Of a DNA stretch of 32,000 nucleotides, positions 2,179 to 29,905 are shown in pieces; positions within the stretch are counted from its first letter, which is position 1; each line of letters opens with the position of its first letter. A program made the translations under genes and the position numbers. The stretch comes from Pyrobaculum calidifontis JCM 11548 (GTDB lineage: Archaea; Thermoproteota; Thermoprotei; Thermoproteales; Thermoproteaceae), in NCBI RefSeq assembly GCF_000015805.1, contig NC_009073.1:1380001-1412000 (forward strand). The letters are read 5' to 3'. The notes beneath the pieces are model-generated. The model ran no database searches and had not been told where the DNA came from. It was given only the letters and a program-made list of their open reading frames with translations.

Positions 2179-2204
2179 TATAACACTTGTACACTTAATA
2201 TACA
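2179..2204 (-). promoter_or_regulatory. Phased hexamer array upstream of ccmA: TATAAC-n3-TGTACA-cttaa-TATACA
   Basis: The plus strand reads TATAAC (2179-2184), TGTACA (2188-2193), TATACA (2199-2204). The central hexamer starts 44 nt from the start at 2144. A TATA-like TTTAAT (plus attaaa, 2166-2171) lies between. The 17-mer TGTACACTTAATATACA is identical to 7591-7607. Confidence 0.6.
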
Positions 2205-2579
2205 CTATGACTTAACTGGGGCATAGTAGGCAGAGTGGCAACCCTTCAAAATTGTGGTTATGTTCAAGGTCTTGGTGGCTGGGTTGTAGAACCCCTCTAC
2301 CACTACCTCGCCGCTGAATTGGAAAGAGGGACCCGCCAGCCTTACGACGGTGTCGTAGGGCACCACAGCCCTTATGGTAAAGCCGTCGCGGCCTCTGAGG
2401 ATTAGGTAGATGTAGTCCCCCTCTCTCCCGTACTCCACAAGTTGGCCGGACACTCTCACCTTGCCTCCTGGGAAGTTCTTCAAGTCGGAGACGTCCTTGG
2501 GAGTTCCAACAAAGAGCGAGGCTATGCCCGCGGCCAAGAAGACTGCCACAAGGGCCCCCGCCACTACCCACCTATTCAT
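2205..2579 (-). CDS. ccmE: CcmE haem chaperone, archaeal variant with C-terminal CxxxY instead of HxxxY
   Basis: 124 aa with an N-terminal TM (WVVAGALVAVFLAAGIASLF) and an OB-like body (VRVSGQLVEY...FTIRAVVPYD...GEVVVEGFY). The C-terminus is ILKGCHSAYYAP, which contains C-H-S-A-Y (CxxxY). ATGA overlap with ccmC. Confidence 0.75.
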   Translation of the reverse strand: MNRWVVAGALVAVFLAAGIASLFVGTPKDVSDLKNFPGGKVRVSGQLVEYGREGDYIYLILRGRDGFTIRAVVPYDTVVRLAGPSFQFSGEVVVEGFYNPATKTLNITTILKGCHSAYYAPVKS

Positions 2580-3535
2580 AGCCTCTCCCGGAGCCAGAGT
2601 ATAAAAGCCATTGTGGCGAAGTAAAGCGCGGCGTTTACATACGCGCTGAAGTGCCGCACCAGCTCCACCCCGCCGCCTGCCACAGCCACGAAGTTCTTGG
2701 GCAAAGTAGGCGTGCCGTTGAAAAAGGCGGGGCTTAACACTTGCCCAGGCGGCACGTTGAGCACCTGCCCGCTCTCTAACACAATAGACGTCTCAGTCAC
2801 ATTCACCACCCTCTGGGGTTGGTAGAGGAGCCAAGGGTAGAGGAGAGCCACTGCCACAACGAGGCCGGCTAAATACACGGCTGAGGTCCACCTCGCCGGC
2901 TTAACAAAGAGGAGGGTCAAGAAGATGGTCAAGATCAAGAGGATGCGCATGCCCATGTACTGCCCCAGGGGCCCCCCGAAGGTGGTGCCCGGCCTGGGGT
3001 GAAACGCCTGTGCCAAGACAGGCGCGAGGAGAGAGACAATTGCGAGGACAAAGCCCGCGATAACAAAAGACTGGGCAAGCTTTACGCTCCTCTCGGGGTC
3101 CTCGACCCCCCTCCTAATGGCTGGGTATAGGGAGTAAATCAGCGCGAGCACTAGGATAGACATCTGTCTGGGGTCTAGGGCGAGGGGCGTGCCCCAGCTC
3201 TCCGCCGCCCAGACGGTGCCGCTGACAAAGGCGTACCACCCCAGCGCCGCCACTGAGTAGGCCGAGAAGTCCATCCACTTGAGAGCCCGCTCTGAGAGAC
3301 CCCTCCAAGCCCCCCACACCGCCAAGACAAAGGACAGAGCGGCCATGACGTAGAGGACAACCGCGGGCGGCACGTGGACGTAGACGTTTAAATACGCCGT
3401 GGGAGCCCCCAGCTCAGCCACAATAAGCGGAAACGGCCCCCAATTCACCAAATAAACCGCGGTAGCCACGTCTACCACTATTAAAACCGCCAGGAGAATA
3501 CCCAAGGGAGACATGTGGACATAATACACGTCCAT
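2576..3535 (-). CDS. ccmC: CcmC-like haem-handling membrane protein with an extra C-terminal extracytoplasmic segment and a terminal TM
   Basis: Polytopic, with a Trp-rich loop WAAESWGTPLALDPRQ (a divergent WWD motif). The likely true start is the ATG at 3514 (MSPLGILL...). The ATG at 3535 lies inside a TATA-like TTAAATA box that sits about 23 nt upstream of 3514. Confidence 0.65.
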   Translation of the reverse strand: MDVYYVHMSPLGILLAVLIVVDVATAVYLVNWGPFPLIVAELGAPTAYLNVYVHVPPAVVLYVMAALSFVLAVWGAWRGLSERALKWMDFSAYSVAALGWYAFVSGTVWAAESWGTPLALDPRQMSILVLALIYSLYPAIRRGVEDPERSVKLAQSFVIAGFVLAIVSLLAPVLAQAFHPRPGTTFGGPLGQYMGMRILLILTIFLTLLFVKPARWTSAVYLAGLVVAVALLYPWLLYQPQRVVNVTETSIVLESGQVLNVPPGQVLSPAFFNGTPTLPKNFVAVAGGGVELVRHFSAYVNAALYFATMAFILWLRERL

Positions 3536-3546
3536 ATTTAAGTCTA

Positions 3547-3563
3547 TGTATACTAAGTGTACA
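3547..3563 (-). promoter_or_regulatory. Hexamer pair TGTATA-ctaag-TGTACA upstream of ccmC
   Basis: TGTATA is at 3547-3552 and TGTACA at 3558-3563. The TGTACA starts 44 nt from the ATG at 3514. The pair abuts the TATA-like TTAAATA and lies 6 nt after the stop of the upstream cytochrome gene. Confidence 0.5.
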
Positions 3564-3569
3564 CAAAGA

Positions 3570-4976
3570 CTAACGTTTATCCACGCGTCTATTTACCCAC
3601 AGAGCCGCCAACCCGCCAACAAGCAAGACCACGGCGATCAGCCCCACTGGGCTAGGCCCCGCAGACGATTTAGCCACGACCTCTGAATACGCAGAGGGCT
3701 CCACAGCCCACGTCTGAACTTTAAACTGGTAGCCAATGGCATGCGCATTAGACACCCTACTGGGGTCTATGGAGAGAAAGTGGCAATTGAAGCAGGAGAC
3801 CCAGACTCTACTAGGCCCAACGCCCAACGGCAGAGTAGAGACAAAGTCGTTTTTATAGGCGTCCCAAAGCCCCACCTCAATATTCCGCCCAGGCGTCTTA
3901 GCCGTGATATTACCCACCAGCGAGGCGACGCTCCCCGTGGCGTTGTACTGAGTATAAGCGCGGGCAAGTTTCACAATAGTGGGCGCCGTCTCTACCCCCG
4001 AGCCAGACCCCTCATACGTCCACAACCCCGCGAGCCACTGCCCCCCATACACATAGCCCACGTGAACCACCGAGTGACACCTACACCCCACACCCCAGTG
4101 CACACTAGTAGAAACCACAGACGCAATAGCCGAGTGACAAGAGCCACAGTACTTCCAAGCCTCGTCCCCACCATAGGTGTTGTGCGCCCAGACATTTTGC
4201 CTAACCGTGGGGTCATACACCGTCGACGGCTGGCCGTGACACGGCTGACAAGCATCAGGATGTTGCAAATACTGCGTAGGCGAAAGAGTCCTCTTCGTCG
4301 CATTAATGTAGCGGGCGACATCCCAAATGTTATACCCATGGAAGTGGCAGTTAAAACAGGAAAGCCAGCTCTCCTCCGCCACTGCCCCATAGGCACCGCC
4401 GAATTTGGCGGGCACAGAGGCTATGTCGCCCACCCACCAATCCCACAACACCACCACGGCCACATTAACTGTATACCCTCCACTGTACAACTGATTAACA
4501 AGCTGGCATACCTTGGGGGGACAGTTGCTGGGCGTCCGCGTACAGTTGCACCAAAGCTTCGCCTGTTTAAACACGAGAGGCGGGTCTACATAAGGCGGAG
4601 CGGCGACGGGAAGATAAGTCTCTACTAAAACCTCGCTAGGGTGTGTAGAACTGTGACGGTTGAGATTTACATGTATAACTGCGTGGCATGCACATTCACG
4701 CGCACGCGGCATAACAGGCACCCCAGCCACCCGCTTGCCGTTGCCGTCATGACATCCACAATACCTTCGGTCTTGGCGATGTCCGTAGGGCGGGGGCGAG
4801 AGGTAAAACGTGGCGCTGGATAATTTCGCGTGGGGGGCGCCGGCCACGTACTCCACATGACAGTTAAGACAGCCTCTATCTCGCTGTTCACTGTGGCAAC
4901 TGTCGCAGTTCCCCACTTGAACCGACACGGCGAGGGTAAACACGGCTAGAGATAAGACTAGGACGAGCTTATTCAT
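3570..4976 (-). CDS. Secreted multihaem c-type cytochrome with a C-terminal membrane anchor (6 CxxCH plus 3 CxCH motifs)
   Basis: Signal peptide MNKLVLVLSLAVFTLAVSV. CxxCH motifs: CDSCH, CLNCH, CFNCH, CQPCH, CGSCH, CFNCH. CxCH motifs: CGCH, CACHAVIHV, CRCHSVVHV. C-terminal TM plus basic tail: GLIAVVLLVGGLAALWVNRRVDKR. N-x-S/T sequons are present. Confidence 0.8.
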   Translation of the reverse strand: MNKLVLVLSLAVFTLAVSVQVGNCDSCHSEQRDRGCLNCHVEYVAGAPHAKLSSATFYLSPPPYGHRQDRRYCGCHDGNGKRVAGVPVMPRARECACHAVIHVNLNRHSSTHPSEVLVETYLPVAAPPYVDPPLVFKQAKLWCNCTRTPSNCPPKVCQLVNQLYSGGYTVNVAVVVLWDWWVGDIASVPAKFGGAYGAVAEESWLSCFNCHFHGYNIWDVARYINATKRTLSPTQYLQHPDACQPCHGQPSTVYDPTVRQNVWAHNTYGGDEAWKYCGSCHSAIASVVSTSVHWGVGCRCHSVVHVGYVYGGQWLAGLWTYEGSGSGVETAPTIVKLARAYTQYNATGSVASLVGNITAKTPGRNIEVGLWDAYKNDFVSTLPLGVGPSRVWVSCFNCHFLSIDPSRVSNAHAIGYQFKVQTWAVEPSAYSEVVAKSSAGPSPVGLIAVVLLVGGLAALWVNRRVDKR

Positions 4977-7566: not shown

Positions 7567-8883
7567 CTATTTATGCCTAGCTATACAACGTGTACACTTA
7601 ATATACAGTGGAACCACAGGAATTAGTAGAACAAAAAACCAGAGAAGCGAAAAGAGGAGTAGGTTGGGGTAGACCGCGATGTCTGCCACAATTGAAACCT
7701 TCAGCCCCCCGCACTCCCTGCCGAGGAGAGCAGAGAGTCTACACAGCTGGTATGAGAAGTACACCTCGTCTCCCAGCCAAAACCTCGCCACCACCACGTG
7801 TGGAAAGAGGTAGGCAGTGACCGTATACGACTCCGCCTTGGCCATTGAAAAGTCCACGGACAGGGGTATTGAGTACTCCCCCACGCCTTTTATTACCACG
7901 TCGAAAACCCCCGCCCCCCGCTCGCCCTCTACGCCAAACGTGGCCCCCTTCAATGCCACATATCTGCCATCTGCCGCAGCCAGAGAGCCGTCTGGCGCCA
8001 CGTCGAGGGGGCCCAACTTCCCCGAAAAAGTGGCGGGGGGAGGCAGGAGGAGGGGGGAGAAGTAGATCAACGCCACCGCGGCCGCGGCAAAGGCCAGGAG
8101 AGATGCCCTGGGCAAAGAGGCGGCGAGGAGAACTGCGAAGGGCAACACAGCCGAGAGGAGAGGCGCAAGCGAAGGCGGGGAGAAGTAGACGGCCAAGAGG
8201 TAGACCCCCGCCGCCATGGCCAACCCCCCAGCAAACCTCCTAGGCGAGGCGGCCAGAGAGGCCACTGCCACGGAGGCCGCGGCGAGGGCCAACAAGTACC
8301 TCCCCCCGACGAATTCCCCCGGCGAGCCTGTGAAAAGCCTAAAAAGCCCCCAGCCCAGCCAAAGCGCAGTCAAGCCGGTGAGCACCACGGCCCATTTCCC
8401 ATTGCCCCTATCGACGGGAGAAAAGACGAGGGGGACTAGGGCGAGGGAGAGGGCCGGGGCCAGAGGCCAGCGGCCAAAAGGCGAGTCAAACAGCAGGACG
8501 ACGGACTGCAAAACCAGCGAGGTGGCGCCCAGCAGGTAGGCCAGCCTCCCCCCTCCAGCCCTCCACCCGGCCCACGCCAAGAGGGCGACGTAGCCGAAGT
8601 AGGGGCTTAACACGTCGATGGGCTGCCCAGCCGCTATATACCCCGCCGAGGTAACGGCGATGCCCCCCGCCGTGAGTAGATACCCATGCCGCCAGAACAC
8701 AATGGCGGAGAGGAATAGGGCAAGAGAAAGCGCGAGGAGAAGCGACAAAAACTGCCCCGACCCCCCCGCCGCCCACACCACGAAAAGCAACGCGGCGTAG
8801 AGAGAGAGAAACCACCTAAAACCCCTGGCAAAAACCGCCAAGGCGAGAGAGAAAAGAGCTAGGAAAGGGAGGGGGTCAGGCAC
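7567..8883 (-). CDS. Polytopic membrane protein of unknown function in the ccm cluster (about 9-10 TM, an extracytoplasmic domain and a terminal TM)
   Basis: 438 aa with a GTG start. It is highly hydrophobic and Ala/Leu-rich for ~290 aa, followed by a beta-looking domain (GKLGPLDVAPDGSL...VYFSYQL) and a final TM (LLLFSLLWFFVLLIPVV). I could find no WWD or CxxC motif. The position between a cytochrome gene and ccmF suggests a maturation accessory role. This is inference only. Confidence 0.5.
   Translation of the reverse strand: MPDPLPFLALFSLALAVFARGFRWFLSLYAALLFVVWAAGGSGQFLSLLLALSLALFLSAIVFWRHGYLLTAGGIAVTSAGYIAAGQPIDVLSPYFGYVALLAWAGWRAGGGRLAYLLGATSLVLQSVVLLFDSPFGRWPLAPALSLALVPLVFSPVDRGNGKWAVVLTGLTALWLGWGLFRLFTGSPGEFVGGRYLLALAAASVAVASLAASPRRFAGGLAMAAGVYLLAVYFSPPSLAPLLSAVLPFAVLLAASLPRASLLAFAAAAVALIYFSPLLLPPPATFSGKLGPLDVAPDGSLAAADGRYVALKGATFGVEGERGAGVFDVVIKGVGEYSIPLSVDFSMAKAESYTVTAYLFPHVVVARFWLGDEVYFSYQLCRLSALLGRECGGLKVSIVADIAVYPNLLLFSLLWFFVLLIPVVPLYIKCTRCIARHK
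7582..7607 (-). promoter_or_regulatory. Phased hexamer array upstream of ccmF: TATACA-acg-TGTACA-cttaa-TATACA
   Basis: TATACA 7582-7587, TGTACA 7591-7596, TATACA 7602-7607. The central hexamer starts 43 nt from the ATG at 7548. A TATA-like ATAAATA (plus tatttat, 7568-7574) is present. The array lies inside the last codons of ORF 7567..8883. Confidence 0.6.
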
Positions 8884-8910: not shown

Positions 8911-10068
8911 TTACTGTGCCCTCCTCCTCAGCGCCAAGAAGGCGCCTCCAAGCAACGTGGCAGTGGCCAAGAGGGCGACTAGCGACAAGTTAGGCGCCAC
9001 GCCGCCGCCAGCCGCCTGAGCCGCCGGCATCACAATCTTGTGCGGGTCAGTGAGAGAGTTAAGCACATCGGCGGGTATGCCTATCTTCCACACGCCGCCC
9101 ACCTCCATCACCTTAGCCGTGCCAAGCTGACCCTGGTAGACGAAGTGGCAGTTGAAACACGCAGCAACGCCTGGGTTAACGGCCACTGGCAAGTAGTAGG
9201 GAGCTCTTGAATATGGCGCATATGGAGCTACCAATATGAAGTCGCCAGTGTGTATGTCAAATACGCCCATGACAATAGTCTCGCCATTAGGCGCCTCCTC
9301 AGTCAACGGATGCGTCCTGACACTGGGGTTCTTCAGCACGGCGCCAGATGCAGTACCCCACTCATAGCGGAATATACCAGCTTGCTCTAAAGCACTGAAG
9401 AAGTCTGTCTCAAGGAAGTCGGCAGCAGAGCTCTTTGCTTTTACTGTGCCGTTGGCATACTTATCGTAGCCTACAAGTAGCGCCTTTACCGTAACCTCGC
9501 CCTTGCTCTCTAGAAGTTGCATCAACGACGTCGGCGCATTACCACTGAATGTGTATGTGCCTTCTGGCGTACCTTTGAAACATATGTACACGTTCCGGAA
9601 GTCTAGAGTGGGCTTGGCGCCGAAATAGCCCGGCGTAGCGGTAGATAATCTGGGCACATAGAAGTATATACATGCAGTGTAGCCGTCTGTTGGATTGCCG
9701 TAGCCCACGTGTGCTACTGCGTGACACGCACATCCATACGAGTTCAGAAGACCGGAGTGCACATTACCGGGGCCGCTATTAATAGAGTTCCAAATAGCTA
9801 CGTGGCAGTTTATACACTTTTTCCATACGTCTGTACCCTTGAGTACTTGGTGGCTCCAGACACACTCCTGCTGGCTTGGGTCACAAGCGCCAGCGGCCGG
9901 CCCGCTAGTTAGTCCGGAGAGGGCTTGGCTGTTGGCCGTTCCTGTCGAGTTTGAGTGGCAGGAGATGCAGTTTGTTGGGTGGTTGTATGAATAGGGCGGG
10001 CCGTACGTTGCTGCTACGAATACTGCTAGTAGTAGTAGCGTTGTAATTAGCGCGGGGAATTTCTTCAT
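8911..10068 (-). CDS. Secreted multihaem c-type cytochrome with a C-terminal membrane anchor (3 CxxCH plus 1 CxCH)
   Basis: Signal peptide MKKFPALITTLLLLAVFVAA. CxxCH motifs: CISCH, CINCH, CFNCH. CxCH motif: CACHAVAHVGY. C-terminal anchor LVALLATATLLGGAFLALRRRAQ. It is a single-module paralog of 3570..4976, sharing the CxCHxVxHV and CFNCHF blocks. Confidence 0.8.
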   Translation of the reverse strand: MKKFPALITTLLLLAVFVAATYGPPYSYNHPTNCISCHSNSTGTANSQALSGLTSGPAAGACDPSQQECVWSHQVLKGTDVWKKCINCHVAIWNSINSGPGNVHSGLLNSYGCACHAVAHVGYGNPTDGYTACIYFYVPRLSTATPGYFGAKPTLDFRNVYICFKGTPEGTYTFSGNAPTSLMQLLESKGEVTVKALLVGYDKYANGTVKAKSSAADFLETDFFSALEQAGIFRYEWGTASGAVLKNPSVRTHPLTEEAPNGETIVMGVFDIHTGDFILVAPYAPYSRAPYYLPVAVNPGVAACFNCHFVYQGQLGTAKVMEVGGVWKIGIPADVLNSLTDPHKIVMPAAQAAGGGVAPNLSLVALLATATLLGGAFLALRRRAQ

Positions 10069-10101
10069 GTGAGATGAGAAATTTTTGGGTATTTAAACTT
10101 T

Positions 10102-10167
10102 TGTATTTGTCAAGTACTTTTTTTATGTTTTTTGTACACTCTGTATTTTGTGTGTACATTTTGTATT
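10102..10167 (-). promoter_or_regulatory. Hexamer cluster upstream of the trihaem cytochrome gene
   Basis: TGTATT (10102-10107)-n5-AGTACT (10113-10118), with the latter starting 45 nt from the ATG at 10068. Two further copies of TGTACA-n3-TGTATT lie at 10133-10147 and 10153-10167, a 20-bp period. A TATA-like TTTAAATA (plus tatttaaa, 10090-10097) is present. The distal copies lie in the last codons of ORF 10110..11918. Confidence 0.5.
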
Positions 10168-11918
10168 CGGCGTAGGGCTGGGAATAGGAGTGGGGCTAGG
10201 GCGACTAGCGCGGGGGCGTAGGGCGGCTCTTCTTGGCGTTGTGGAGGCTTGGGTAGCGCCGTGACTTGGGCGTGGGGCTGGGCGGGGGCTTGGCTCCAGT
10301 TGGCCCACCTCTCTGCTATTTGACAAGCGTGTACTCTCGCCAAGTAGAGTAACTTGGTCTCGTTTAGGGGAGCCGCGGCGGCTATGGCCAAGTTTTCTCG
10401 TAATGAGACTTGGCCGTCTGGTCTTACGACGTGGCTCAGCGCGTCTAGGTAGTGTAGGTATTTTACGTCTGTGGTGTTGGGGAAGGCTGGGTGTAGGGCG
10501 AAGTAGGTGAGGGCGTAGGCCAACGCCTCTATGTAGTAGCCCAGGGCCGCCTTGTAGTTTCCCTGTCTCATTGCTATTTCGCCTCTGGCGTAGTTGAGGG
10601 CGGCGTTTCCCACGAGTTGTGGAGATATTATGTCTGTGGCTTTTGAGTACATGTCGGCGTATCTCACTGCCTGTTCTACATATCTGCGGAGGCTCGCCGC
10701 AGCCTTCTCTATGTCGTATGGCTCAGCGCTGTGTGTATAGTAGAGGAGGGATTTCCATAGGTAGTAGACTGCTTGTGCATATTTGTACGCGGCCTGCGCG
10801 GCGCTGTCTATAAAGCCCATTTTGTAATAGGCATAGTCGAGTCCAGCGTCTCGCATGTAGACCTGGGCCGTGTGTATATACATGTGGGCGTATGCCATGT
10901 CGCACAGCGGCGCCGTGTTGTTAGCCACAGCGTCTGCGAGCTCAAGCAAGGCGGCTAGGTATGTGGCTATCTCTACCTCGGCCCCCTGTGGGTCTGTCAG
11001 CATCCTCACGTAGAAGTACGGCGTGGCCGCCTCTGCTATTGCGCGGGGGAGGGCCTCTGTGGCGAGGTCAGTGTTGTTCTTTGCCACTTGTACATAGGCC
11101 AGGGCTTGGGCGGCGCCTCGCCTTAGCACATCTGCGTACTGTGGGTAAAGCGCCGCGAGGCGGAGGGTCTTGTTTACAAAGAGGAGGGCCTCTTTTTCAA
11201 CTGCGTCTATTGGCGTGGCGCTGTTTAAGACGGTCTCGGCGGCTTGGCCCAGCCTCTCTAGATTCGCCGTGAGGTTGTAGGCGGCCCCCGCGGCGATGGC
11301 TACGGCTTGGTATATGTTGCCCACTTCTTCTACTGGCACTATCTCGGCCAGGGGGAGGGGCCTCCTCTCTACTCTCTCTACCAAGGCGCCGTAGACGCCG
11401 TAGAGCTTGGGCTTCCACACTATTTTGTAGTCGTAGTGTTGGAGGACTGGGTATACGAAGAGTTTGAAGCCGTACTGCCTGGCGCCCTGGGCCTTTTCCA
11501 CGAGGCCTCCCACGAAGTCTACTACGCCGCCGGGGGCCAGAGTCCCCGTGTAGATGATCGACGCGTTGAGGGGGGTGTGCGTTATTGCGCTGTACGCCGC
11601 CACTGCCACTGTCAGCGATAGGCTTGTCCCCACTAGGGCCCGCGAGGCGTTTAGCGGGTTTATCACCACGGTGTAGTTTAGGGCGAGGGGGTCGACTCCC
11701 GCCGCTATTGCGGCTTCCCAACACGCCGAGATTGTGGAGTAGTAGAAGGTTAAGTCGTAGTAGTCTAGGCCCTTGATTTCAACGGTGCCGTTGCCTGGCC
11801 CCACGTACACCGCCACTTGGACTGGCACTGCCCTTCCGTCGTAGATGGCTAGCCCATACGCCGTCCCCTGGCCGTAGGCCAAGGCGGCTAGTAGGAGGAG
11901 GACTAGCGCCCGTGGCAT
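10110..11918 (-). CDS. Secreted protein with an N-terminal Lon-like (S16) peptidase-type domain, an Ala/Tyr-rich helical (TPR-like) repeat region and a C-terminal anchor
   Basis: Signal peptide MPRALVLLLLAALAYG. LVGTSLSLTVAVAAYSAITHTPL and TGTLAPGGVVDFVGGLVEKAQGARQYGFKLFVYP resemble the Lon proteolytic-domain blocks (G-x-S-A-G...; TG-x-I-x-x-G-x-V-x-P-V-GG-x-x-EK...G-x-K-x-x-x-x-P). Candidate Ser and Lys residues are retained. The helical repeat region includes GNYKAALGYYIEALAYALTY. The C-terminal hydrophobic stretch is ALVALAPLLFPAL followed by a basic tail. Assigned by motif recollection only. Confidence 0.5.
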   Translation of the reverse strand: MPRALVLLLLAALAYGQGTAYGLAIYDGRAVPVQVAVYVGPGNGTVEIKGLDYYDLTFYYSTISACWEAAIAAGVDPLALNYTVVINPLNASRALVGTSLSLTVAVAAYSAITHTPLNASIIYTGTLAPGGVVDFVGGLVEKAQGARQYGFKLFVYPVLQHYDYKIVWKPKLYGVYGALVERVERRPLPLAEIVPVEEVGNIYQAVAIAAGAAYNLTANLERLGQAAETVLNSATPIDAVEKEALLFVNKTLRLAALYPQYADVLRRGAAQALAYVQVAKNNTDLATEALPRAIAEAATPYFYVRMLTDPQGAEVEIATYLAALLELADAVANNTAPLCDMAYAHMYIHTAQVYMRDAGLDYAYYKMGFIDSAAQAAYKYAQAVYYLWKSLLYYTHSAEPYDIEKAAASLRRYVEQAVRYADMYSKATDIISPQLVGNAALNYARGEIAMRQGNYKAALGYYIEALAYALTYFALHPAFPNTTDVKYLHYLDALSHVVRPDGQVSLRENLAIAAAAPLNETKLLYLARVHACQIAERWANWSQAPAQPHAQVTALPKPPQRQEEPPYAPALVALAPLLFPALRRIQNVHTKYRVYKKHKKST

Positions 11919-12607
11919 CTGGCGCAGTCTAGGAAGTCGGCTGGGCTAAAGCCCATGGCTCTGGGCCCGTGGCACCCTATGCATGGGACTCCCTTGCCTG
12001 CGCCTATTTGGCAGTCTGGCCCTATTGGGACATACCACCTGGACCACGGACTGTGGCACTCTAGGCATACCTCGTATTTGCCCATGTCTACTTGGGCCCA
12101 GGCGGAGTCGTGGAAGACCATGTGGGTGTTTAACACTTTGTTGTAGTCGTGGCAGGTCTGACATCTGGCGCTTGTGGTGGCGGAGTCGTGGGGGTTGTGG
12201 CAGAGGGTGCAGCTCTTTAGCCTGTCTGCCAGCTGGGCGTGCGCCTCGTGGATGTTTAACTGGGAGAAGGACTGGGCTGTGTGGCAGGTGAGACACTGGT
12301 CGAACATGGGCTGGGCGTATCGCGCCGCTATTTGTTGGGGAGTTGGGTTTTCCACTGCTTGTACGTAGATCCAGCGGAGTAGGTCTATGGAGTGGCAGGT
12401 GGCGCAGGAGGTTCCCCCATGCGGCGTATTTTTAATGTTGGCGATGAAGGGGAGCATGTTGTGGCAGGTGGCGCACACGGCCGATGACCCGGGGTCGTAC
12501 CTCAAGTACAGCCAAAAGCCGACTCCGGCGACCACCGCCGCGGCTAACAACAGCAGTGCCACAGTCCTGGGAGTAAGCGCCTTTCTCAGCCGCTGTAGCC
12601 TACCCAT
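11903..12607 (-). CDS. Membrane-anchored octahaem c-type cytochrome, NapC/NirT/NrfH-like
   Basis: N-terminal TM (TVALLLLAAAVVAGVGFWLYL) and eight CxxCH motifs: CATCH, CATCH, CLTCH, CTLCH, CQTCH, CLECH, CIGCH, CARCH. It overlaps both neighbouring genes (8 nt and 16 nt). Confidence 0.8.
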   Translation of the reverse strand: MGRLQRLRKALTPRTVALLLLAAAVVAGVGFWLYLRYDPGSSAVCATCHNMLPFIANIKNTPHGGTSCATCHSIDLLRWIYVQAVENPTPQQIAARYAQPMFDQCLTCHTAQSFSQLNIHEAHAQLADRLKSCTLCHNPHDSATTSARCQTCHDYNKVLNTHMVFHDSAWAQVDMGKYEVCLECHSPWSRWYVPIGPDCQIGAGKGVPCIGCHGPRAMGFSPADFLDCARCHGR

Positions 12608-14222
12608 GGCCCGCCAGCCTCCTTATTAAAATTGCAAGTATGGCAATGAACGGAAAAATCGCCGCCGTCAACACGTCTCGCGTCTCTTTGGGGGCTAGCT
12701 GGGGGTTTTGTGGTAGAGTTAGTACATACGCGTACCCCGACTCTACTTTGAAGGCGGCGAGGTTGTCGCCATAGAGGTAGAAGACGAGGTAGACGTAGTC
12801 GCCGGGGGGCATTGGCAAGAGGTATCTAAGTCTCACTGTGCCGTTTATGTACCCGGCGTAGCGGCCAGAGTTTGTGGAATTGAAAAGCGTCGTGGGCGGC
12901 AACGGGATGAGAACCCCGCTTTTGTTCATTAGTAGGATTGGCCATAGCGCCGTCTGTCTTAGGGGGTCTCTAGGCCTCGCTGTCACGTTCATTTCGACGT
13001 AGGCCGCCACGGCGTTGGGGAGGCGGGGTATTTCCAGTCTCATGAGGGGCTGCGGCTGTGTTAGCTGTATGGAGTAGTAGTGGGGCACCACTAGGGGTGT
13101 CTTTTTCTCCAGTGTAATGGGCTGGGCGGGTACTTGGGGCAGTTGTACCACGCCTTTTTTAACTACGCCGGGGCCTGTGTATACGACTGTGACATTTCCG
13201 CCTGCCGTGGCCTCCAGCGGCAAGAGGCGTATTGTCAACAGACTGGGCTTGGCCACCTCTGCAAAGAGCGTGGCTGAGAGCGCGTGTTCTAGGGCGAGCC
13301 CCTCTGGCGACACTGTGTCGTTTAATAACACGTCGTATTGTACTCCCAGCGCCGTCTGTCTAATGCCCACTACTACTCCGGCCAGCGTCCTGTATTCCAC
13401 CGTGGGCGGCTGTATTGATATAGGCCCGGTGTAGTTCATGGGGTATATGGCGTAGCGGTTTTGAGGCCCGGCTATCTCCACTTTGAAGTATGTGACGTTG
13501 CCCCACGCCTTTGACGGCTCTAGGAGTATCTCTCCGCCGCCGCTTAAGTCCTTCTCCACGGTGACGTTGCCCACGTTCAGCGTTACTTTTACCTGTATGT
13601 ACTTGGCTAAGTAGTAGTAATAGGGCTGGTACGCTATTCTCAGGGCCTTAGACCTATTGAAGCAGTACCATGAGACTATTTTTAGAAGGCCTATGTCTCC
13701 CCCGTATTTCCCGGCTAGGTCTATTTGAAGCCAGTTGCAGAGGTCTACCACCCGCGTTTTGACGTTGAAGGCTAGGGCGCGCCACTCGGGGGTAAAGACT
13801 AGGCTTTGCCCAGCCCTCTTGGCCGCCTCTGCTATGTCTAGGTAGTACACGTCTTTTACCACGCCGCCGCGGGTCACCACTATGAAAGTGGCATTTAAGA
13901 ACTCCACCGCTGTTTCCTCGCCTGCGCACGCGTCCATGAGGGTTTGGCTGAGGGACAACGTGGCAGTGTTCTGCGGGTTTTGGAAAACGTAGTGCATCGT
14001 CTTCTCCCCCTTCGCTCCGCAGTTGAAGCGTAGGTGTAAGACGGCTATTGTGTAGACGTCTTCGCCTAGGTGTTGAGATAGGGCGGTGTTGTTTACCTTG
14101 ACTGCAACTACTACGTCTGTTACTATGGTGAGCGTGGTCTTGTTTACTACTTCTACCTCGATGCCTGGCGCCACTGTTATGGCTATGGCGAAAGGGGCAA
14201 TAAGTAGAACGAGGTATTTCAT
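12600..14222 (-). CDS. Secreted, heavily N-glycosylation-sequon-rich protein of unknown function with a C-terminal anchor
   Basis: The start is reassigned to the ATG at 14222 (MKYLVLLIAPFAIAITVAPG, a signal peptide). The ORF-track extension to 14351 runs through the TATA and hexamer promoter region. At least 13 N-x-S/T sequons are present. C-terminal TM AAIFPFIAILAILIRRL. No recognisable catalytic or cofactor motif. Confidence 0.6.
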   Translation of the reverse strand: MKYLVLLIAPFAIAITVAPGIEVEVVNKTTLTIVTDVVVAVKVNNTALSQHLGEDVYTIAVLHLRFNCGAKGEKTMHYVFQNPQNTATLSLSQTLMDACAGEETAVEFLNATFIVVTRGGVVKDVYYLDIAEAAKRAGQSLVFTPEWRALAFNVKTRVVDLCNWLQIDLAGKYGGDIGLLKIVSWYCFNRSKALRIAYQPYYYYLAKYIQVKVTLNVGNVTVEKDLSGGGEILLEPSKAWGNVTYFKVEIAGPQNRYAIYPMNYTGPISIQPPTVEYRTLAGVVVGIRQTALGVQYDVLLNDTVSPEGLALEHALSATLFAEVAKPSLLTIRLLPLEATAGGNVTVVYTGPGVVKKGVVQLPQVPAQPITLEKKTPLVVPHYYSIQLTQPQPLMRLEIPRLPNAVAAYVEMNVTARPRDPLRQTALWPILLMNKSGVLIPLPPTTLFNSTNSGRYAGYINGTVRLRYLLPMPPGDYVYLVFYLYGDNLAAFKVESGYAYVLTLPQNPQLAPKETRDVLTAAIFPFIAILAILIRRLAGHG

Positions 14223-14254
14223 GTGTCTGAATTTTGTAAAATTATTTAAGCACA

Positions 14255-14282
14255 TGTATTCAAGTTGTACACTTGTTATAAT
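14255..14282 (-). promoter_or_regulatory. Phased hexamer array TGTATT-n5-TGTACA-n5-TATAAT
   Basis: TGTATT 14255-14260, TGTACA 14266-14271, TATAAT 14277-14282, in exact 11-bp register. The central hexamer starts 44 nt from the ATG at 14222. A TATA-like TTAAATAA (plus ttatttaa, 14243-14250) is present. The array overlaps the stop codon of the upstream nrfD-like gene. Confidence 0.6.
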
Positions 14283-16726: not shown

Positions 16727-16760
16727 GTAAAAGCTTCTTTTATGTTTATTTAAACCATTC

Positions 16761-16795
16761 TATTACAAATGTACACTTGGTATACATTGTGTACA
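16761..16795 (-). promoter_or_regulatory. Phased hexamer array TATTACA-n2-TGTACA-cttgg-TATACA-ttg-TGTACA
   Basis: TGTACA 16770-16775 starts 44 nt from the GTG at 16726. TATACA is at 16781-16786 and TGTACA at 16790-16795. A TATA-like TTTAAATA (plus tatttaaa, 16747-16754) is present. It has the same 26-nt architecture as 21486-21511. Confidence 0.6.
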
Positions 16796-17488
16796 CTACG
16801 AGTAGTGGCACTGTGTACATGGCCTACCTGTTATATCAGGCGGCGTAAGCTGTAGATGACAGGTAAGACAAGTCTTGCCCTCTACCACGCCTTGTAGACA
16901 GGGAGCTGCCGGGGGTACATAGGCGTGTGAATTTGGCGAGTGGCATTTGCCGCACATCTCTACGCTGAATGTGAAGGGGCTATTGTGCATTTGCATATGC
17001 TTTTCCACTGTGGGGAGGTATGGGTGGCAATTGGCGCAGGACTGGGGGAGGAAGTTTTCGATGTGGATGGCGTGGCACACGCTACATGTATTAGTGGTAT
17101 TAACTACTGCAAGGTGGGCGGTGTGTATGTACAACTTCTGTGGATTTGTGTGACATTCTAGACAGGGCTCATATAGGCCTTTGTGTGGATAATACTTATT
17201 GAATACGTCGAGGGAATTTGGGCGAGATGTCAAGTATGTCCAAACCATGTCTGCCATGTCGCCTATCGTAATTTTGTGGCATACGAGACAGCTGTATTTT
17301 GAGTGCGGCTTGCTTATATTGCCTATGTAGAATGACATTGTATGACATATTCCACATTGTACATTTACTGTTGGAGTATATACAAAAAATGCGTATAGGA
17401 CCGGTATCGAAAAAATAAGTATCAATATGACAATTACGATGGCCTTTATTACTGACGCCTTTTTAATAGGCATTCTAAATTTCAACAC
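16796..17488 (-). CDS. Membrane-anchored octahaem c-type cytochrome, NapC/NirT/NrfH-like (paralog of 11903..12607)
   Basis: N-terminal TM (AIVIVILILIFSIPVLYAFFV) and eight CxxCH motifs: CGICH, CLVCH, CLECH, CSVCH, CANCH, CGKCH, CLTCH, CTQCH. The motifs are collinear with the other octahaem protein. Start is GTG at 17488 or ATG at 17473. The gene is visibly AT-richer than its neighbours. Confidence 0.8.
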   Translation of the reverse strand: MLKFRMPIKKASVIKAIVIVILILIFSIPVLYAFFVYTPTVNVQCGICHTMSFYIGNISKPHSKYSCLVCHKITIGDMADMVWTYLTSRPNSLDVFNKYYPHKGLYEPCLECHTNPQKLYIHTAHLAVVNTTNTCSVCHAIHIENFLPQSCANCHPYLPTVEKHMQMHNSPFTFSVEMCGKCHSPNSHAYVPPAAPCLQGVVEGKTCLTCHLQLTPPDITGRPCTQCHYS

Positions 17489-17521
17489 AATGCTTCACAA
17501 TCAGAAAAATATATGCCTTGT

Positions 17522-17548
17522 TATTCAAGATGTACACTTTGTATTACA
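17522..17548 (-). promoter_or_regulatory. Phased hexamer array TATTCA-n3-TGTACA-n5-TATTACA
   Basis: TGTACA 17531-17536 starts 43 nt from the start at 17488. A TATA-like ATATATTT (plus aaatatat, 17508-17515) is present. The array overlaps the stop codon of the upstream nrfD-like gene. Confidence 0.55.
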
Positions 17549-21441: not shown

Positions 21442-21473
21442 GTTTCCATAGAATTTTATAGATATAAAACTCT

Positions 21474-21511
21474 TGTTATGAAAAGTGTACACTTGATATA
21501 CATGTTGTACA
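21474..21511 (-). promoter_or_regulatory. Phased hexamer array TGTTAT-n6-TGTACA-cttga-TATACA-tgt-TGTACA
   Basis: TGTACA 21486-21491 starts 45 nt from the ATG at 21441. TATACA is at 21497-21502 and TGTACA at 21506-21511. A TATA-like TTTTATAT (plus atataaaa, 21462-21469) is present. The region is shared with the divergent HEPN gene. Confidence 0.6.
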
Positions 21512-21548
21512 TATGGCAAAGCTTTTATTTCTCTCAGCCCCATGGCGC

Positions 21549-24624: not shown

Positions 24625-24625
24625 C

Positions 24626-24631: not shown

Positions 24632-24650
24632 ACCAGGAGTTGGACAATAC

Positions 24651-25145
24651 GTGCTTCCGAAGTCTCTGTTAGAGGAGGCCAAGAGGAGAGGCGTCGACCT
24701 TGTGGAAGTGGTTGCTAAGGCCCTTTCTCTCGACCCGCCAGCCATCGCCGAGGCGCACCTGGAGCTGGCCGAGCGCTTCTTGGAGGAGGGAAGGGGGCTA
24801 GTGGATAAAGACCCTGTGCAGGCCAGCGAGAAGTTGTACAAGGCGGCTGTAGAGGCCGTGAAGGCGGCGGCAGTGTTGTTGGGCCTTGAGGAGGCGGAGA
24901 GGGCAAGGGAGGCAGGCAGGTGGACCGCGGCGCTTCTCTTCAGCGCAGTAGAGAAGTTGGCTGAAAAGACGCAGAGGGAGGTTAGGTGGTGGTGGAGAAC
25001 TGCGTGGGTATTGCACGTGGAGGGATTCCACGAGGCTAGGCTTAAGCCCACTGAAAAAGACGTAGAAGACGTGGAAAATTTAGTCAAGCTTGTGGGAAAA
25101 CTGAAAAAAGGGGATTTAGGGGAAGTACCAGGCGCCGTTGGCTAA
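24651..25145 (+). CDS. PaREP1-like helical (HEPN-related) protein
   Basis: GTG start. The all-helical, Glu/Ala/Lys-rich translation contains AEAHLELAERFLEEGRGLVDKDPVQASEKLYKAAVEAVKAAA and ...WVLHVEGFHEARL. This matches my recollection of the Pyrobaculum PaREP1 family signature. Not verified by search. Confidence 0.5.
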   Translation: MLPKSLLEEAKRRGVDLVEVVAKALSLDPPAIAEAHLELAERFLEEGRGLVDKDPVQASEKLYKAAVEAVKAAAVLLGLEEAERAREAGRWTAALLFSAVEKLAEKTQREVRWWWRTAWVLHVEGFHEARLKPTEKDVEDVENLVKLVGKLKKGDLGEVPGAVG

Positions 25146-26632: not shown

Positions 26633-29600
26633 ACCCTCACCACCTCTACCACTGTGTTACCCATGGCCCCAGGCGTGCCCAATTTCCCAGCCATCATAGC
26701 GCCGAAGTAGTTGTCGTCGCTGTCCCCCGCCCTTATGTCGGCCAGCTTCGCCGCCTTGACCCTCAGCCGGCCCTTTGGCACAAGCCAGTAGTGGTATATG
26801 GCGATGATGTCCGGCCTAACCATGTTCGTCACCCTCACCTTGAACCTGGCCGTGGGGACGTTTTGGGCGCCCACGGCCTTTAATTGCTCAAGGACCTTGG
26901 GCGCCGCGGGCCTTACCTCAATCCAGTCCCCGTCCTTCACGCCGAGGGCCGCCGCGGTGGACGGGTGAATCCACGCAGTGAGGAGCTCGTCGGGCGTCAG
27001 AGTGTTTAGGAGCATGTTGTTCTGAGTGTGGCTGTGGGTGTGGGTATATGGCCCGTGGCGGTATACCAACAACAACCTCTTTGGCGGCTGCGGCGGGACG
27101 AGGCCGTTGACCTCGATGTCCGGCGTGGGAGGCGCCGTGGCCCACATGTAGTCTGGCCTAGCCATGCCCGCGTAGAGAGGCACTGGGGAGAACAGGGGGT
27201 CTACGCCGCTCTTTGTCCCTTCGAGGTCGGAGGGGTCTATAGACGTGGCTGGCTTGCCGAAGACTCTCGACACGTCGTAGGCCAAGTTTATGCTGTATAT
27301 CTCCACTCTCCCACTCGGCGTGGGGAATGGCACAGTGCCCGCAGTGATGGGCGCATTGTAGTGTATAGTCCTCCACAGCCACTGCTCTAGAGATACGTCG
27401 TATTTCACGGGCTTGTACACGTGGACTCTCACCTTCACCTCCCTGCCGAGCGCCTGCGACCACCTCTCGTCTACAACTGTCTCTATCCGGCCCGTGGGCA
27501 CGAGCACCATGTAGCCGCCCATCTTGTACAAGTCGTCCACCGTTGGAGCTCTCACGTTGCCCTGCTCGTCGACAATCCTAATCCTCCTAAACGTGGCGTT
27601 GATGAAGTTCCTCAGATTTGTTATTGGGAATATGCCGTCCTCTGTGATCATTCCCACGGGCATGTTCTGAGACCAGTCTGTCCCATCTCTCGCCTTGACG
27701 CCGAGCTGTTGCAACCGCCTCGCAATCATTAGCAAAACCTCGAATATTGTGCGCCCGTCCCTGGAGCGGTACTGCTTGTCCAACTCCCCCGGCTTAGCCC
27801 CCTGTTGTATCTTCGCCATGTACTCCTCGTAGTACCACGGGAATCTGACAGAGATGGCTGGGAACGGGGAGAACGGGCCGGGCAACGCCAAGTCCATCCT
27901 CTCGAGGTAGGGCAAGTCGGGGAGTATTAAGTCAGCGAAGGCCGTGGTGTCGTTGAACTGTATGTCGTGGACAATTACGAGGTCGAGCTCTCTGAAGATC
28001 TGTTCCACCAGCCTGGAGTTGCCTATCTGCGGTATTGGGTTAGAGCCTACGATGAACACAACCTTGGTCTTAAAGGGCTTGCCGTGTACCACGCTTTCGT
28101 ACAGCGCCTGTACAGTGTCGTACGGGTAGAGGTAGCCCTTCTTCTCGGCCTCCTCGGCCCACTTCTCCACTAGGGCAGGGACGGGTGGGGCGCCTCTGTC
28201 GCTGGGGCCTGGCAGCGGAGGCGCCACTGGGATGACGTATATGCCGCCTAGGTTAGCTGAGACGTACTCGCTGAAGGTGGCCCCACGTATTGTCTTATAC
28301 GGCACGTCCTTCCTAGTGTACTTAAGCACCTTGGTGTATATGTCGGAGTAGGGCATTATGAGGTGCGTCAACAGGAAGATGCCGCCTGGCTGCTGTATGC
28401 GGCCCAGCAGTGCCATTACTATCCCAACGGCTCTCCACGTCTGCGGCGAGTTGGAGTAGCGGGGGTCGTGCCAGCCGATGGGCGCCACGGCGCGGTGCTT
28501 GGCAACAATCTCCGCCGCCTTCCTCAAGTCTTCCACCGAGACGTCGGCCTCCTTTGCCGCAGCCTCCATGTAGTCGGCGACGCCGTGCTTCTTCGCGAGG
28601 GCGGCCAAGTTGGCGTCTACCCACTCCTTCAGGATGGTGAGCGCTGTCTTGACCTTCGCCGTGGTCCCGTCTTTTAGCTGTACCTCGTACTCGCCGAATA
28701 GGGCCGGCTTAGCCGCGGCGTTGTCTGGCGCAGGGGCGTTGGCGGCGGCGTCCCACACCACGTAGGCAAAGGCCTTGGGCTCAGATGCGCCGTACTTGGC
28801 CCAGTCTACCTCAGAGGCTAGGAGGGGTATCCCGTTGTCTAGCCTAATTAGGAAGGGGGCGTTGGTATATCTGACGAGGTAGGGCTCTGCGTAGTAGCCG
28901 TTGTCCAGTATGTACTTAATAAAGGCCAGGAGGACGGCGAGGTCTGTGCCCGGCTTAACCGGCAGCCAGACGTCTGCGTAGGAGGCGGTCTCGTCGAATA
29001 CTGGGCTTAGCACCACGAGCTTGGCCCCCCTCTTCACGGCCTCCATGAAGCGCCACGTTTCTGTCACAACGCCGGCGCCTATGACGTTGCGCCGCACCAC
29101 AAGTATGGCCTCCGCCTCGCCGTAGTCTACACACACGGTGTGGGCTTGGTGGCCGTGGCCCCACGTGAGCCAGTGGCCGAGGTAGCGGGGGTATGTGCAG
29201 TACGGGTTGTCAAAGGTTATTATCCCTCCGCCGAAGGTGTCGGCGAATCTAGAGATGGGGACTCCTGCCCTCATTGACGCCGTGGGGCCCCAGGCGCCGA
29301 AGAGGAACGTGAAGGCGTGCCTCTCGTTGTTGTCGGCGAGCTCCTTGAGCTTCTTCGCTATTATCTCAATGGCCGTGTTCCAGTCCACTTCTACAAAGTC
29401 GTCGTACTTCCCCCTGTTCTGTGAGAGCTGGCGCTTTGCCTCCTCCCAGCTGATCTTCCCCTGGGCCCAGTCCACCAGCGCCCTCCTGGCCATGGGCTTC
29501 TTTATGGCGTCTGGGTTAAGCCACGTACTAAACGTGCCCGAGACCCCCCTGGCGCATATCCCCATGGCGCTGGTGGGAGCGTTGGTGTTCGGCCTAATTC

Positions 29601-29805
29601 TCACCGGCTTCCCGTTCGCCACGTCTACATAGATGGCGCACTGCGCCATACACATCCCGCATATAGACGGCACCGAGGTGACCTTCACAGCGCTTGGCGC
29701 CTGTTGTCCCACCTGCTCCGCGGCCTTGATTAAAACACCGGCGACACCTCCAACAATGCCTATGGTAATACCAGCTTTAATTACATCACGCCTAGAGATA
29801 GACAT
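26629..29805 (-). CDS. Large (1058 aa) molybdopterin (DMSO reductase family) oxidoreductase catalytic subunit. The size is TtrA-like; the substrate is not assignable.
   Basis: Tat signal MSISRRDVIKAGITIGIVGG. FeS0 motif CGMCMAQC-x27-C. Followed by FeS and NrfD subunit genes, each with a 4-nt overlap. Confidence 0.8.
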   Translation of the reverse strand: MSISRRDVIKAGITIGIVGGVAGVLIKAAEQVGQQAPSAVKVTSVPSICGMCMAQCAIYVDVANGKPVRIRPNTNAPTSAMGICARGVSGTFSTWLNPDAIKKPMARRALVDWAQGKISWEEAKRQLSQNRGKYDDFVEVDWNTAIEIIAKKLKELADNNERHAFTFLFGAWGPTASMRAGVPISRFADTFGGGIITFDNPYCTYPRYLGHWLTWGHGHQAHTVCVDYGEAEAILVVRRNVIGAGVVTETWRFMEAVKRGAKLVVLSPVFDETASYADVWLPVKPGTDLAVLLAFIKYILDNGYYAEPYLVRYTNAPFLIRLDNGIPLLASEVDWAKYGASEPKAFAYVVWDAAANAPAPDNAAAKPALFGEYEVQLKDGTTAKVKTALTILKEWVDANLAALAKKHGVADYMEAAAKEADVSVEDLRKAAEIVAKHRAVAPIGWHDPRYSNSPQTWRAVGIVMALLGRIQQPGGIFLLTHLIMPYSDIYTKVLKYTRKDVPYKTIRGATFSEYVSANLGGIYVIPVAPPLPGPSDRGAPPVPALVEKWAEEAEKKGYLYPYDTVQALYESVVHGKPFKTKVVFIVGSNPIPQIGNSRLVEQIFRELDLVIVHDIQFNDTTAFADLILPDLPYLERMDLALPGPFSPFPAISVRFPWYYEEYMAKIQQGAKPGELDKQYRSRDGRTIFEVLLMIARRLQQLGVKARDGTDWSQNMPVGMITEDGIFPITNLRNFINATFRRIRIVDEQGNVRAPTVDDLYKMGGYMVLVPTGRIETVVDERWSQALGREVKVRVHVYKPVKYDVSLEQWLWRTIHYNAPITAGTVPFPTPSGRVEIYSINLAYDVSRVFGKPATSIDPSDLEGTKSGVDPLFSPVPLYAGMARPDYMWATAPPTPDIEVNGLVPPQPPKRLLLVYRHGPYTHTHSHTQNNMLLNTLTPDELLTAWIHPSTAAALGVKDGDWIEVRPAAPKVLEQLKAVGAQNVPTARFKVRVTNMVRPDIIAIYHYWLVPKGRLRVKAAKLADIRAGDSDDNYFGAMMAGKLGTPGAMGNTVVEVVRV

Positions 29806-29837
29806 GTGTTATACGAATGCTTTTATTTTTAAACGTT

Positions 29838-29905
29838 TGTATTAATAATGGACAAGAGTTAACACAGTATATGTCTATTGTACACCTGTGTACACTTTAT
29901 ATACA
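29838..29905 (-). promoter_or_regulatory. Extended hexamer cluster upstream of the 1058-aa oxidoreductase gene
   Basis: TGTATT (29838-29843)-n5-TGGACA (29849-29854), with the latter starting 44 nt from the ATG at 29805. Distal hexamers: TGTACA 29879-29884, TGTACA 29889-29894, TATACA 29900-29905. A TATA-like TTTAAAAATAAAA (plus 29821-29833) is present. The distal part overlaps the stop of the RHH gene (29897). Confidence 0.55.

Follow-up and report, generated by a model that had tools for sequence, protein, structure and literature searches.

The window analysed here, a stretch of 32,000 nucleotides of Pyrobaculum calidifontis JCM 11548 (NC_009073.1, positions 1,380,001 to 1,412,000), is an island of respiratory genes from a Pyrobaculum-type archaeon, with P. 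ferrireducens, a metagenome-assembled genome (MAG) of P. arsenaticum and Pyrobaculum MAGs as its nearest named relatives. Nearly all the genes of interest lie on the minus strand, in units that encode cytochrome c maturation (Ccm) proteins, multihaem cytochromes and molybdopterin (Mo) oxidoreductases with iron-sulphur (FeS) and NrfD subunits (Table 1). Some of these units are paralogous (two octahaem cytochromes, three FeS/NrfD sets). All nine minus-strand respiratory promoters share one element, as revealed by a gapless alignment, by matrix scores and by its position, and this element, its possible function and the protein that may bind it are the subject of the present analysis.

A shared element at nine respiratory promoters

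An earlier note on this DNA had described the nine promoters as carrying a run of TGTACA-like hexamers in a roughly 11-bp register. When aligned on the start codons proposed there, the promoters match without gaps over about 40 nt, from the left arm of the element through the TATA box. The consensus reads tATA-nn-AAG-TGTACA-nn-T-nnn-ATA, followed by seven bases (aAGGc) and then by TTTAAATA. The hexamers are not equivalent; the unit is a 24-bp palindrome, TATA-N5-TGTACA-N5-TATA, whose sub-sites are unequal. Each of the three sub-sites is two-fold symmetric and their 10 bp spacing places them on one face of the helix, and sites score on both strands, as expected from the palindromy. The helical phasing is thus present as an alternating TATA/TGTACA series, with an actual period of 10 bp from centre to centre in place of the register of 11 bp. 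Extra copies of the unit, each displaced upstream by exactly 20 bp, have a TATA arm in common with their neighbour (16781–16804, 21497–21520, 10124–10147 and 10144–10167), and tandem cores placed 20 bp apart in this way give the TATA/TGTACA alternation every 10 bp.

A gap of 7 nt separates the element from the TATA box, and the element abuts the position of the recognition element (BRE) of transcription factor B (TFB). The TATA box starts about 27 nt from the start codon, occupies −27 to −20 in nine of nine promoters, in agreement with the A/T-rich box noted before, and is near consensus (TTAAATA in most of them). The fixed distance of the central hexamer was also reproduced, with its proximal end 43–45 nt from the start and its gene-strand beginning 48–50 nt upstream in all nine cases. 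This 7-nt spacing to the TATA box is shown by a good copy of the unit in seven of the nine promoters, while in the remaining two (start codons 10068 and 29805) the proximal copy is degenerate and better copies are found farther upstream. The constancy of the distance is weakest at 29805, the least regular promoter, which still belongs to the set.

Sites were scored with a 24-nt weight matrix that leaves out BRE and TATA box, in a leave-one-out scheme, and Markov-shuffled windows served as the null. Six sites (2144, 7548, 14222, 16726, 17488 and 21441) reach 28–34 bits against a null maximum of 14.7, and the ccmC site (3514) scores a moderate 11.7 bits. The above-null matches all fall within the nine promoter regions, save one at 30357–30380, next to a gene for a 145-aa protein that is considered below. 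None is seen in coding sequence, in line with the earlier view that the isolated hexamer in coding DNA is not the signal. The window contains 30 copies of the hexamer TGTACA itself, where dinucleotide shuffles give 5.35 ± 2.17, and 14 of the 30 lie within the nine promoter regions. The identity of a 17-mer at 2188–2204 and 7591–7607, also pointed out earlier, is exact and ends there with no extension on either copy.

Coding regions hold 19 TGTACA copies, 13 of them in the frame xTG-TAC-Axx, where shuffling of synonymous codons gives 9.9 ± 2.6. This excess is mostly due to codon and dipeptide usage, a few copies being operators that overlap gene ends.

Five of the start codons used for the alignment merit a comment. 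Automatic gene calling on metagenome contigs with the same genes chose starts other than 2144, 14222 and 17488, and the codons at 3514 and 21441 lie downstream of the start of the longest open reading frame (ORF). Orthologous promoters back the choice of the earlier note for at least 14222, 17488 and 3514, and promoter geometry and orthologues, taken together, favour it for most of the five. Examples of the differences in the calls are 551 versus 540 aa, 225 versus 230 aa and 191 versus 193 aa.

Conservation and specificity of the element

Syntenic loci were reached through homologues of the octahaem cytochrome; they belong to P. ferrireducens (L047), a Pyrobaculum MAG (L048 and L049) and the P. 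arsenaticum MAG (L050), and their coding DNA is ~68–72% identical to that of the window. Despite this divergence, the corresponding promoters there keep the element, at the octahaem cytochrome, the FeS operon, the 540-aa protein, the 385-aa cytochrome, ccmF, ccmC and ccmA. The distance from the core to the start codon is again ~49 nt, rising to ~69 nt at promoters with a better distal than proximal copy, and the promoter bases around the element are not conserved between lineages. A comparison of 19 proximal sites from four genomes showed T−9, A−8 and A12/T13/A14 to be invariant or nearly so and the spacer positions to be free to vary; as an exact TGTACA served to anchor the alignment, the invariance of the core in this table is by construction. 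Three overlapping copies of the unit are present in L048. The more distant Thermoproteus MAG L176 (CcmF 43% identical) and locus L177 (48%) retain the element at several promoters, and in P. aerophilum it is found upstream of both reductase operons flanking PAE2842, once with a TGCACA core. The 540-aa gene of P. ferrireducens overlaps the upstream NrfD gene and lacks a promoter of its own, and the element is absent there.

The specificity of the element was examined by scanning 276 kb from 17 Pyrobaculum and Thermoproteus loci (some of them overlapping) with a matrix built from the 19 sites, at a threshold of 18 bits. Island promoters hold 61 of the 64 sites found. An ORF homologous to an island protein begins within 40–115 nt of 52 sites; a further nine are either the outer copies of tandems or stand before genes truncated where a locus ends, and the three that could not be assigned are weak (18–20 bits), with imperfect cores. 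No sites were seen in these loci before the genes for acetyl-CoA synthetase, PaREP1, PIN, CBS or protease proteins, or before other flanking genes. For the sequence sampled, this distribution indicates a dedicated operator and not a generic promoter element. Within the window, the promoters of panB/FAH and of the PaREP1-like, DUF1122 and nucleotidyltransferase genes show no above-null element, which agrees with what had been stated for unrelated genes. The panB, PaREP1-like, DUF1122 and 188-aa promoters have the identical TATA-to-start distance without the element. The leaderless-type layout is therefore general, and the upstream element alone is special to the respiratory promoters.

Two wider scans were performed. 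A strict pattern (18-base-equivalent) run against 185,579 species genomes returned one Pyrobaculum match, at a ccmF promoter, and 22 chance bacterial matches, and was discarded as a definition of the regulon for being too stringent. A looser scan of metagenomes informs on which genes follow the matches and not on their counts. Among the matches listed (at least 120), every island-similar contig has its match before ccmC, ccmF, the PhsA-like reductase or an octahaem cytochrome; also among those listed, one short contig carries an identical reductase-promoter sequence and the rest are of low G+C content or low complexity.

Proposed function and the candidate regulator

Conservation, specificity and TATA geometry support the earlier proposal of a dedicated regulator of cytochrome maturation, cytochromes and terminal reductases. 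Of the three outcomes named there as refuting, two, a lack of conservation and presence at genes of any function, were looked for within the sampled loci and did not occur. Judged from the DNA, the element is very probably the operator of a dedicated sequence-specific factor that co-regulates the Ccm genes, the multihaem cytochromes and the three Mo/FeS/NrfD operons. An oligomeric factor would occupy the phased sub-sites, all on one side of the DNA, in a cooperative manner and, positioned against BRE and TATA box, would control the recruitment of TFB and of the TATA-binding protein (TBP). The best guess is that it would activate the respiratory promoters and repress where its site lies between TATA box and start, as at the 145-aa gene; activation is favoured for the former because archaeal activators are reported to act immediately upstream of BRE. 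With less weight, the factor may be the island-encoded 145-aa protein itself, possibly together with a 188-aa paralogue. The 145-aa protein would bind as ribbon-helix-helix dimers, one to each palindromic sub-site, and would respond to a haem, metal or redox signal through the conserved His/Cys domain at its C-terminus. Two-fold symmetric sub-sites one helical turn apart would suit such dimers and are compatible with this candidate.

The 29805 promoter is immediately preceded by the genes for the 145-aa and 188-aa proteins. Members of the 145-aa family were found in Pyrobaculum and Thermoproteus only, and the pair is located in or beside the island in each of the seven lineages for which the context was retrieved. 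It accompanies the island in locus L166, in Thermoproteus MAG L176 and in L177, and adjoins the reductase operons in P. aerophilum and a close relative. The gene order in P. ferrireducens is ccmA-ccmB-377aa-hemA-191aa-145aa-reductase, where the counterpart of the 188-aa gene follows directly after hemA and closes the run of genes that begins at the motif-bearing ccmA promoter. In T. tenax (L174, 9415–14126) the pair is found beside dsrAB/dsrC and near CbiA-like and uroporphyrinogen methyltransferase genes, not beside a molybdopterin reductase or ccm genes. No conserved regulator was found in the immediate flanks of L047, L048 and L050.

A half-site that was missing from the earlier list lies in the gap upstream of the 145-aa gene. 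This gap reads TATA-N5-TGTACA-N9/10-ATG in L166, P. aerophilum, T. tenax, P. ferrireducens and L177. The TATA box itself acts here as an arm of the motif and the core falls between TATA box and ATG, which is the position expected for autorepression; the 145-aa protein is thus a plausible autoregulated candidate on the evidence of its promoter. The matrix match at 30357–30380 mentioned above was rejected as a site, its right arm being the TATA box of this gene and its supposed core reading TGGATA; the true feature, TATA-N6-TGTACT, lies nearer to the ATG.

At the N-terminus of the 145-aa protein, a short strand-like stretch precedes two helices that are joined by a G-R-x-P-S-E turn. In the AlphaFold2 monomer model, residues 1–11 are unstructured and helices span residues 12–24 and 29–45. 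Comparison of the family by hhalign with a hand-typed alignment of classical ribbon-helix-helix proteins gave a probability of 52% (P 1.4e-4), with GRRPSE placed on the GRSxNSE turn. No Pfam match was obtained at E ≤ 10, either with the full length or with the N-terminal 50 residues, and the search of PDB sequences returned no ribbon-helix-helix protein. The C-terminal domain resembles no solved structure. Residues H46, H55 and C57 are invariant, and C131 and C144 nearly so. Seven orthologues of the 188-aa protein could be aligned, and their comparison with the 145-aa family by hhalign gave a weak match over the N-terminal halves (P 1.2e-3), which suggests that the 188-aa protein is probably a distant paralogue. 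The identification of the pair as the regulator is tentative, possible and not probable. More speculative, and as a whole rather unlikely, is the wider picture in which both proteins form a new regulator family restricted to Thermoproteales, with ribbon-helix-helix-like N-termini and a His/Cys sensor domain (perhaps for haem or redox). As the master switch of cytochrome c respiration in Pyrobaculum and Thermoproteus, such a family would recognise TATA/TGTACA arrays phased at 10 bp, with activation from sites upstream of BRE and repression of its own promoter.

Several observations weigh against the proposed operator, its mode of action or its candidate regulator. Two of the nine proximal sites are weak, with 4.4 bits at 10068 (AGTACT) and 7.3 bits at 29805 (TGTCCA), and the specificity sample consists of ~276 kb around island-type loci. 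Near-consensus TATA boxes suit a repressed as well as an activated promoter. The site at the 145-aa promoter is absent in Thermoproteus MAG L176, the pair has no matches in Pfam, NCBIfam, the PDB sequence profile search or Foldseek, and the hhalign support for a ribbon-helix-helix fold is modest, with hand-typed reference sequences. Finally, a 194-aa winged-helix-looking protein adjoins the pair in T. tenax and in L177.

The same operator could instead serve a repressor, which would bind at the proximal arm next to BRE, spread over the phased sub-sites, occlude TFB and TBP and keep intrinsically strong cytochrome and reductase promoters off until a signal arrives. Repression at all sites is a serious alternative, if not the expected one: besides the TTAAATA boxes, the proximal arm lies 7 nt from the TATA box, from where a bound protein would probably reach BRE, and the site of the 145-aa gene overlaps the core promoter in a position typical of repression. 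The layout speaks for activation instead: the centre of the core lies ~23 bp before the TATA box and extra copies run away from it, as reported for archaeal activator sites such as that of GvpE (PMC2241852). Whether the bound protein is some other one is an even call. In that case the 194-aa protein, or a factor encoded elsewhere, would be the regulator, and the pair would be regulated haem or cofactor accessory proteins, as its lack of a detectable DNA-binding domain (Pfam, NCBIfam, PDB sequence search, Foldseek) and its neighbours would suggest (hemA in Pyrobaculum, sirohaem and dsr genes in T. tenax). The 194-aa sequence is typical of a winged helix, by reading of the sequence and not by database match, and the promoter of its gene in L177 has TGTACA directly after the TATA box. 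However, tblastn finds this gene in only 2 of 21 sequences searched, whereas the 145-aa/188-aa pair accompanies the island in every lineage with flanks retrieved, and the apparent beta-alpha-alpha pattern of the N-terminus, the G-x-x-P-S-E turn and the hhalign register would fit a ribbon-helix-helix protein.

Explanations that dispense with a dedicated factor fare worse. A general promoter feature, or an extended promoter read by an alternative TFB or TBP paralogue, would agree with the fixed distance from the TATA box and with the somewhat conserved 7-nt BRE region that adjoins the element (aAGGc). It is nevertheless very unlikely: the element is absent from all unrelated promoters examined despite their identical TATA-to-start geometry, and neither palindromy, nor tandem copies 20 bp upstream, nor a site downstream of the TATA box at the 145-aa gene is expected of a directional element. 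That the element is a functionless remnant of promoter duplication in a recently expanded island is hardly credible. The paralogous units and the 17-mer shared by two promoters would be in keeping with such an origin, but the identity stops exactly at the 17-mer, the motif positions alone match between promoters, and the same positions are kept in orthologues with ~70% identical coding DNA.

Related systems and individual sites

The GvpE upstream activating sequence at gas-vesicle promoters is reported as an archaeal activator site placed upstream of BRE (PMC2241852). The present element is like the archaeal upstream activating sequences, short conserved elements directly upstream of BRE and TATA box that a gene-specific factor needs and that are sometimes duplicated. 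It differs from them in its three-part palindrome, its 10-bp phased sub-sites with shared arms and its presence at no fewer than nine operons of one pathway. Transcription-factor operators beside archaeal core promoters are a well known class, and the sites of Ptr2/Lrp-type regulators and of TFB-RF1 are further archaeal elements next to BRE. SurR and TrmBL1 of the Thermococcales are dual-function regulators whose effect is set by the position of the site relative to BRE and TATA box. In a similar manner, one motif is located here before BRE and TATA box at some promoters and, at the 145-aa gene, past the TATA box; its sequence, the pathway under control and the taxon (Thermoproteales) are different.

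Phased sub-sites are a habit of ribbon-helix-helix regulators such as Arc and Mnt (two dimers ~11 bp apart), CopG and omega (heptad arrays), and in NikR a domain of this type is joined to a C-terminal metal-binding domain. The two-fold symmetric sub-sites about one turn apart, and the candidate with its possible beta-alpha-alpha N-terminus and His/Cys C-terminal domain, recall these proteins, but the 145-aa sequence has no Pfam ribbon-helix-helix match. The operators of the antitoxin systems YefM-YoeB and Axe-Txe, which are bacterial and only self-regulating, consist of paired palindromes with a TGTACA core. The identical core hexamer is thus found in adjacent palindromes at a promoter in both cases, but the spacing is different, the binder there has a Phd/YefM fold, and the genes downstream are here those of ccm, cytochrome and oxidoreductase proteins. 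No Phd/YefM domain was found among the window proteins scanned, and the shared TGTACA is a coincidence of sequence.

No prior description of the motif, the regulon or the 145-aa and 188-aa proteins was found in the searchable literature. To our knowledge, little is known about respiratory regulation in crenarchaea and, if the assignment is true, the 145-aa/188-aa family would be the first respiratory regulator defined together with its regulon in Crenarchaeota. The element offers a concrete, testable respiratory regulon in hyperthermophilic archaea, which would tie the attachment of haem by Ccm to multihaem cytochromes and three molybdopterin oxidoreductases and, in the lineages with hemA downstream of ccmA/ccmB, to haem synthesis as well. 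Multihaem cytochromes of this kind are suspected in extracellular electron transfer. The element also provides a defined DNA bait for isolating the regulator, alongside a named island-encoded candidate, and a natural set of promoters for studying archaeal control by factors placed against BRE and TATA box.

Table 1. Transcription units, candidate regulator genes and operator sites of the island (positions in the window; bits are leave-one-out scores; numbers in brackets after a core are distances from the start codon)
Feature	Position	Strand	Details
ccmA-ccmB	2144 to 1040	minus	
ccmC-ccmE	3514 to 2205	minus	
ccmF and six-haem cytochrome	7548 to 3570	minus	
385-aa cytochrome c and membrane protein	10068 to 7567	minus	membrane protein 7567-8883
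540-aa secreted protein, octahaem cytochrome and 602-aa protein	14222 to 10110	minus	
Two FeS proteins and NrfD	16726 to 14276	minus	
Second octahaem cytochrome	17488 to 16796	minus	
PhsA-like molybdopterin oxidoreductase, FeS and NrfD subunits	21441 to 17544	minus	
1058-aa molybdopterin oxidoreductase, FeS and NrfD subunits	29805 to 25116	minus	
145-aa protein	29897..30334	minus	unassigned family, candidate regulator
188-aa protein	30365..30931	minus	unassigned family; always immediately upstream of the 145-aa gene
ccmA-ccmB operator	2179..2202	minus	TATATTAAGTGTACAAGTGTTATA; core 2188-2193; TATA box 2164-2171; 30.6 bits
ccmC-ccmE operator	3549..3572	minus	TAGTCTTTGTGTACACTTAGTATA; core 3558-3563; TATA box 3534-3541; left arm degenerate
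ccmF/six-haem cytochrome operator	7582..7605	minus	core 7591-7596; TATA box 7567-7574; 32.8 bits
385-aa cytochrome c triple tandem array	10104..10167	minus	AGTACT 10113-10118 (-50), TGTACA 10133-10138 (-70), TGTACA 10153-10158 (-90); TATA box 10089-10096
540-aa/octahaem/602-aa operator	14257..14280	minus	core 14266-14271; TATA box 14242-14249; 32.6 bits
FeS-FeS-NrfD array	16761..16819	minus	proximal 16761-16784, core 16770-16775 (-49), 33.6 bits; distal 16781-16804, core 16790-16795 (-69); third TGTACA 16814-16819; TATA box 16746-16753
Octahaem cytochrome operator	17522..17545	minus	core 17531-17536; TATA box 17507-17514; 28.0 bits
PhsA-like Mo-oxidoreductase/FeS/NrfD tandem operators	21477..21520	minus	proximal core 21486-21491 (-50), distal core 21506-21511 (-70); TATA box 21462-21469; 30.9 bits
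1058-aa Mo-oxidoreductase/FeS/NrfD divergent array	29840..29903	minus	degenerate proximal TGTCCA, plus-strand 29849-29854 (-49); TGTACA 29879-29884 (-79) and 29889-29894 (-89); TATA box 29825-29832; arm up to 29903
145-aa gene core promoter	30335..30364	minus	half-site TTTTTATA-TCTAGA-TGTACT-N10-ATG; hexamer 30345-30350, between TATA box and ATG

The conservation of the single operators is as follows. The ccmA sites of P. ferrireducens and of the P. arsenaticum MAG score 36 bits. The ccmC-ccmE operator reaches 31.1 bits with the 19-site matrix and its TAGT left arm is kept in four other lineages. The genome pattern scan independently picked up the ccmF site in a Pyrobaculum MAG, and all the ccmF orthologues examined keep it. 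At the 540-aa gene the operator is kept in L048, L050 and a further locus, L151. The orthologues of the FeS operon have a perfect distal core and a degenerate proximal one. Sites at octahaem orthologues score 32–38 bits, with GTG starts placed 48–50 nt from the core, and those of the PhsA-like operon reach 33–39 bits in L064, L107 and L157, P. aerophilum having the TGCACA variant. The triple layout of the 385-aa cytochrome promoter, with its steps of 20 bp, recurs in L048 and, in part, in P. ferrireducens and Thermoproteus MAG L176. At the 29805 promoter, the orthologue in L166 keeps the TGTACA pair at −90/−80 and not the proximal hexamer, and the P. aerophilum-type orthologue has a perfect proximal TGTACA at −51 (with the start codon as called in contig L173).

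Several sites overlap the coding sequence of neighbouring genes. The ccmF operator and its TATA box (7567–7610) coincide with the 3' end of the preceding membrane-protein gene (13 codons and the stop), the encoded protein ending in LYIKCTRCIARHK. The C-terminal peptide FLYIKCTRLITRHK is also present in Pyrobaculum MAG L042, and the conservation of this tail may be due to the constraint imposed by the promoter that it encodes. The stop codon of the NrfD gene upstream of the 540-aa gene (14276–14281) sits within the left TATA arm of the 540-aa operator. The distal site of the FeS promoter overlaps the end of the octahaem cytochrome gene and the third TGTACA is inside that gene (16796–16819). The final codons of the 145-aa gene (C-I-stop, TGTATATAA; 29897–29903) form the outermost arm of the 29805 array.

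Some features of the genes themselves were also observed. The 540-aa secreted protein (12600–14222) has no family match, and the 602-aa protein (10110–11918) contains a region that weakly resembles the C-terminal part of Lon protease. Their genes flank that of the octahaem cytochrome in an arrangement kept in all related loci, and the three products may therefore form a dedicated extracytoplasmic cytochrome complex. In the P. arsenaticum MAG (L050, 12407–13658) the triple array is intact and a 191-aa C-terminal fragment begins ~650 nt downstream of it; this remnant indicates that the 385-aa cytochrome gene appears to be disrupted in that MAG. The large molybdopterin oxidoreductase by PAE2842 is encoded in P. 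aerophilum IM2 (L172, 10533–13729) as two ORFs of 695 and 369 aa, whereas the close metagenome contig L173 (10542–13730) has a single ORF of 1062 aa, which suggests a frameshift or a pseudogene in the type strain.

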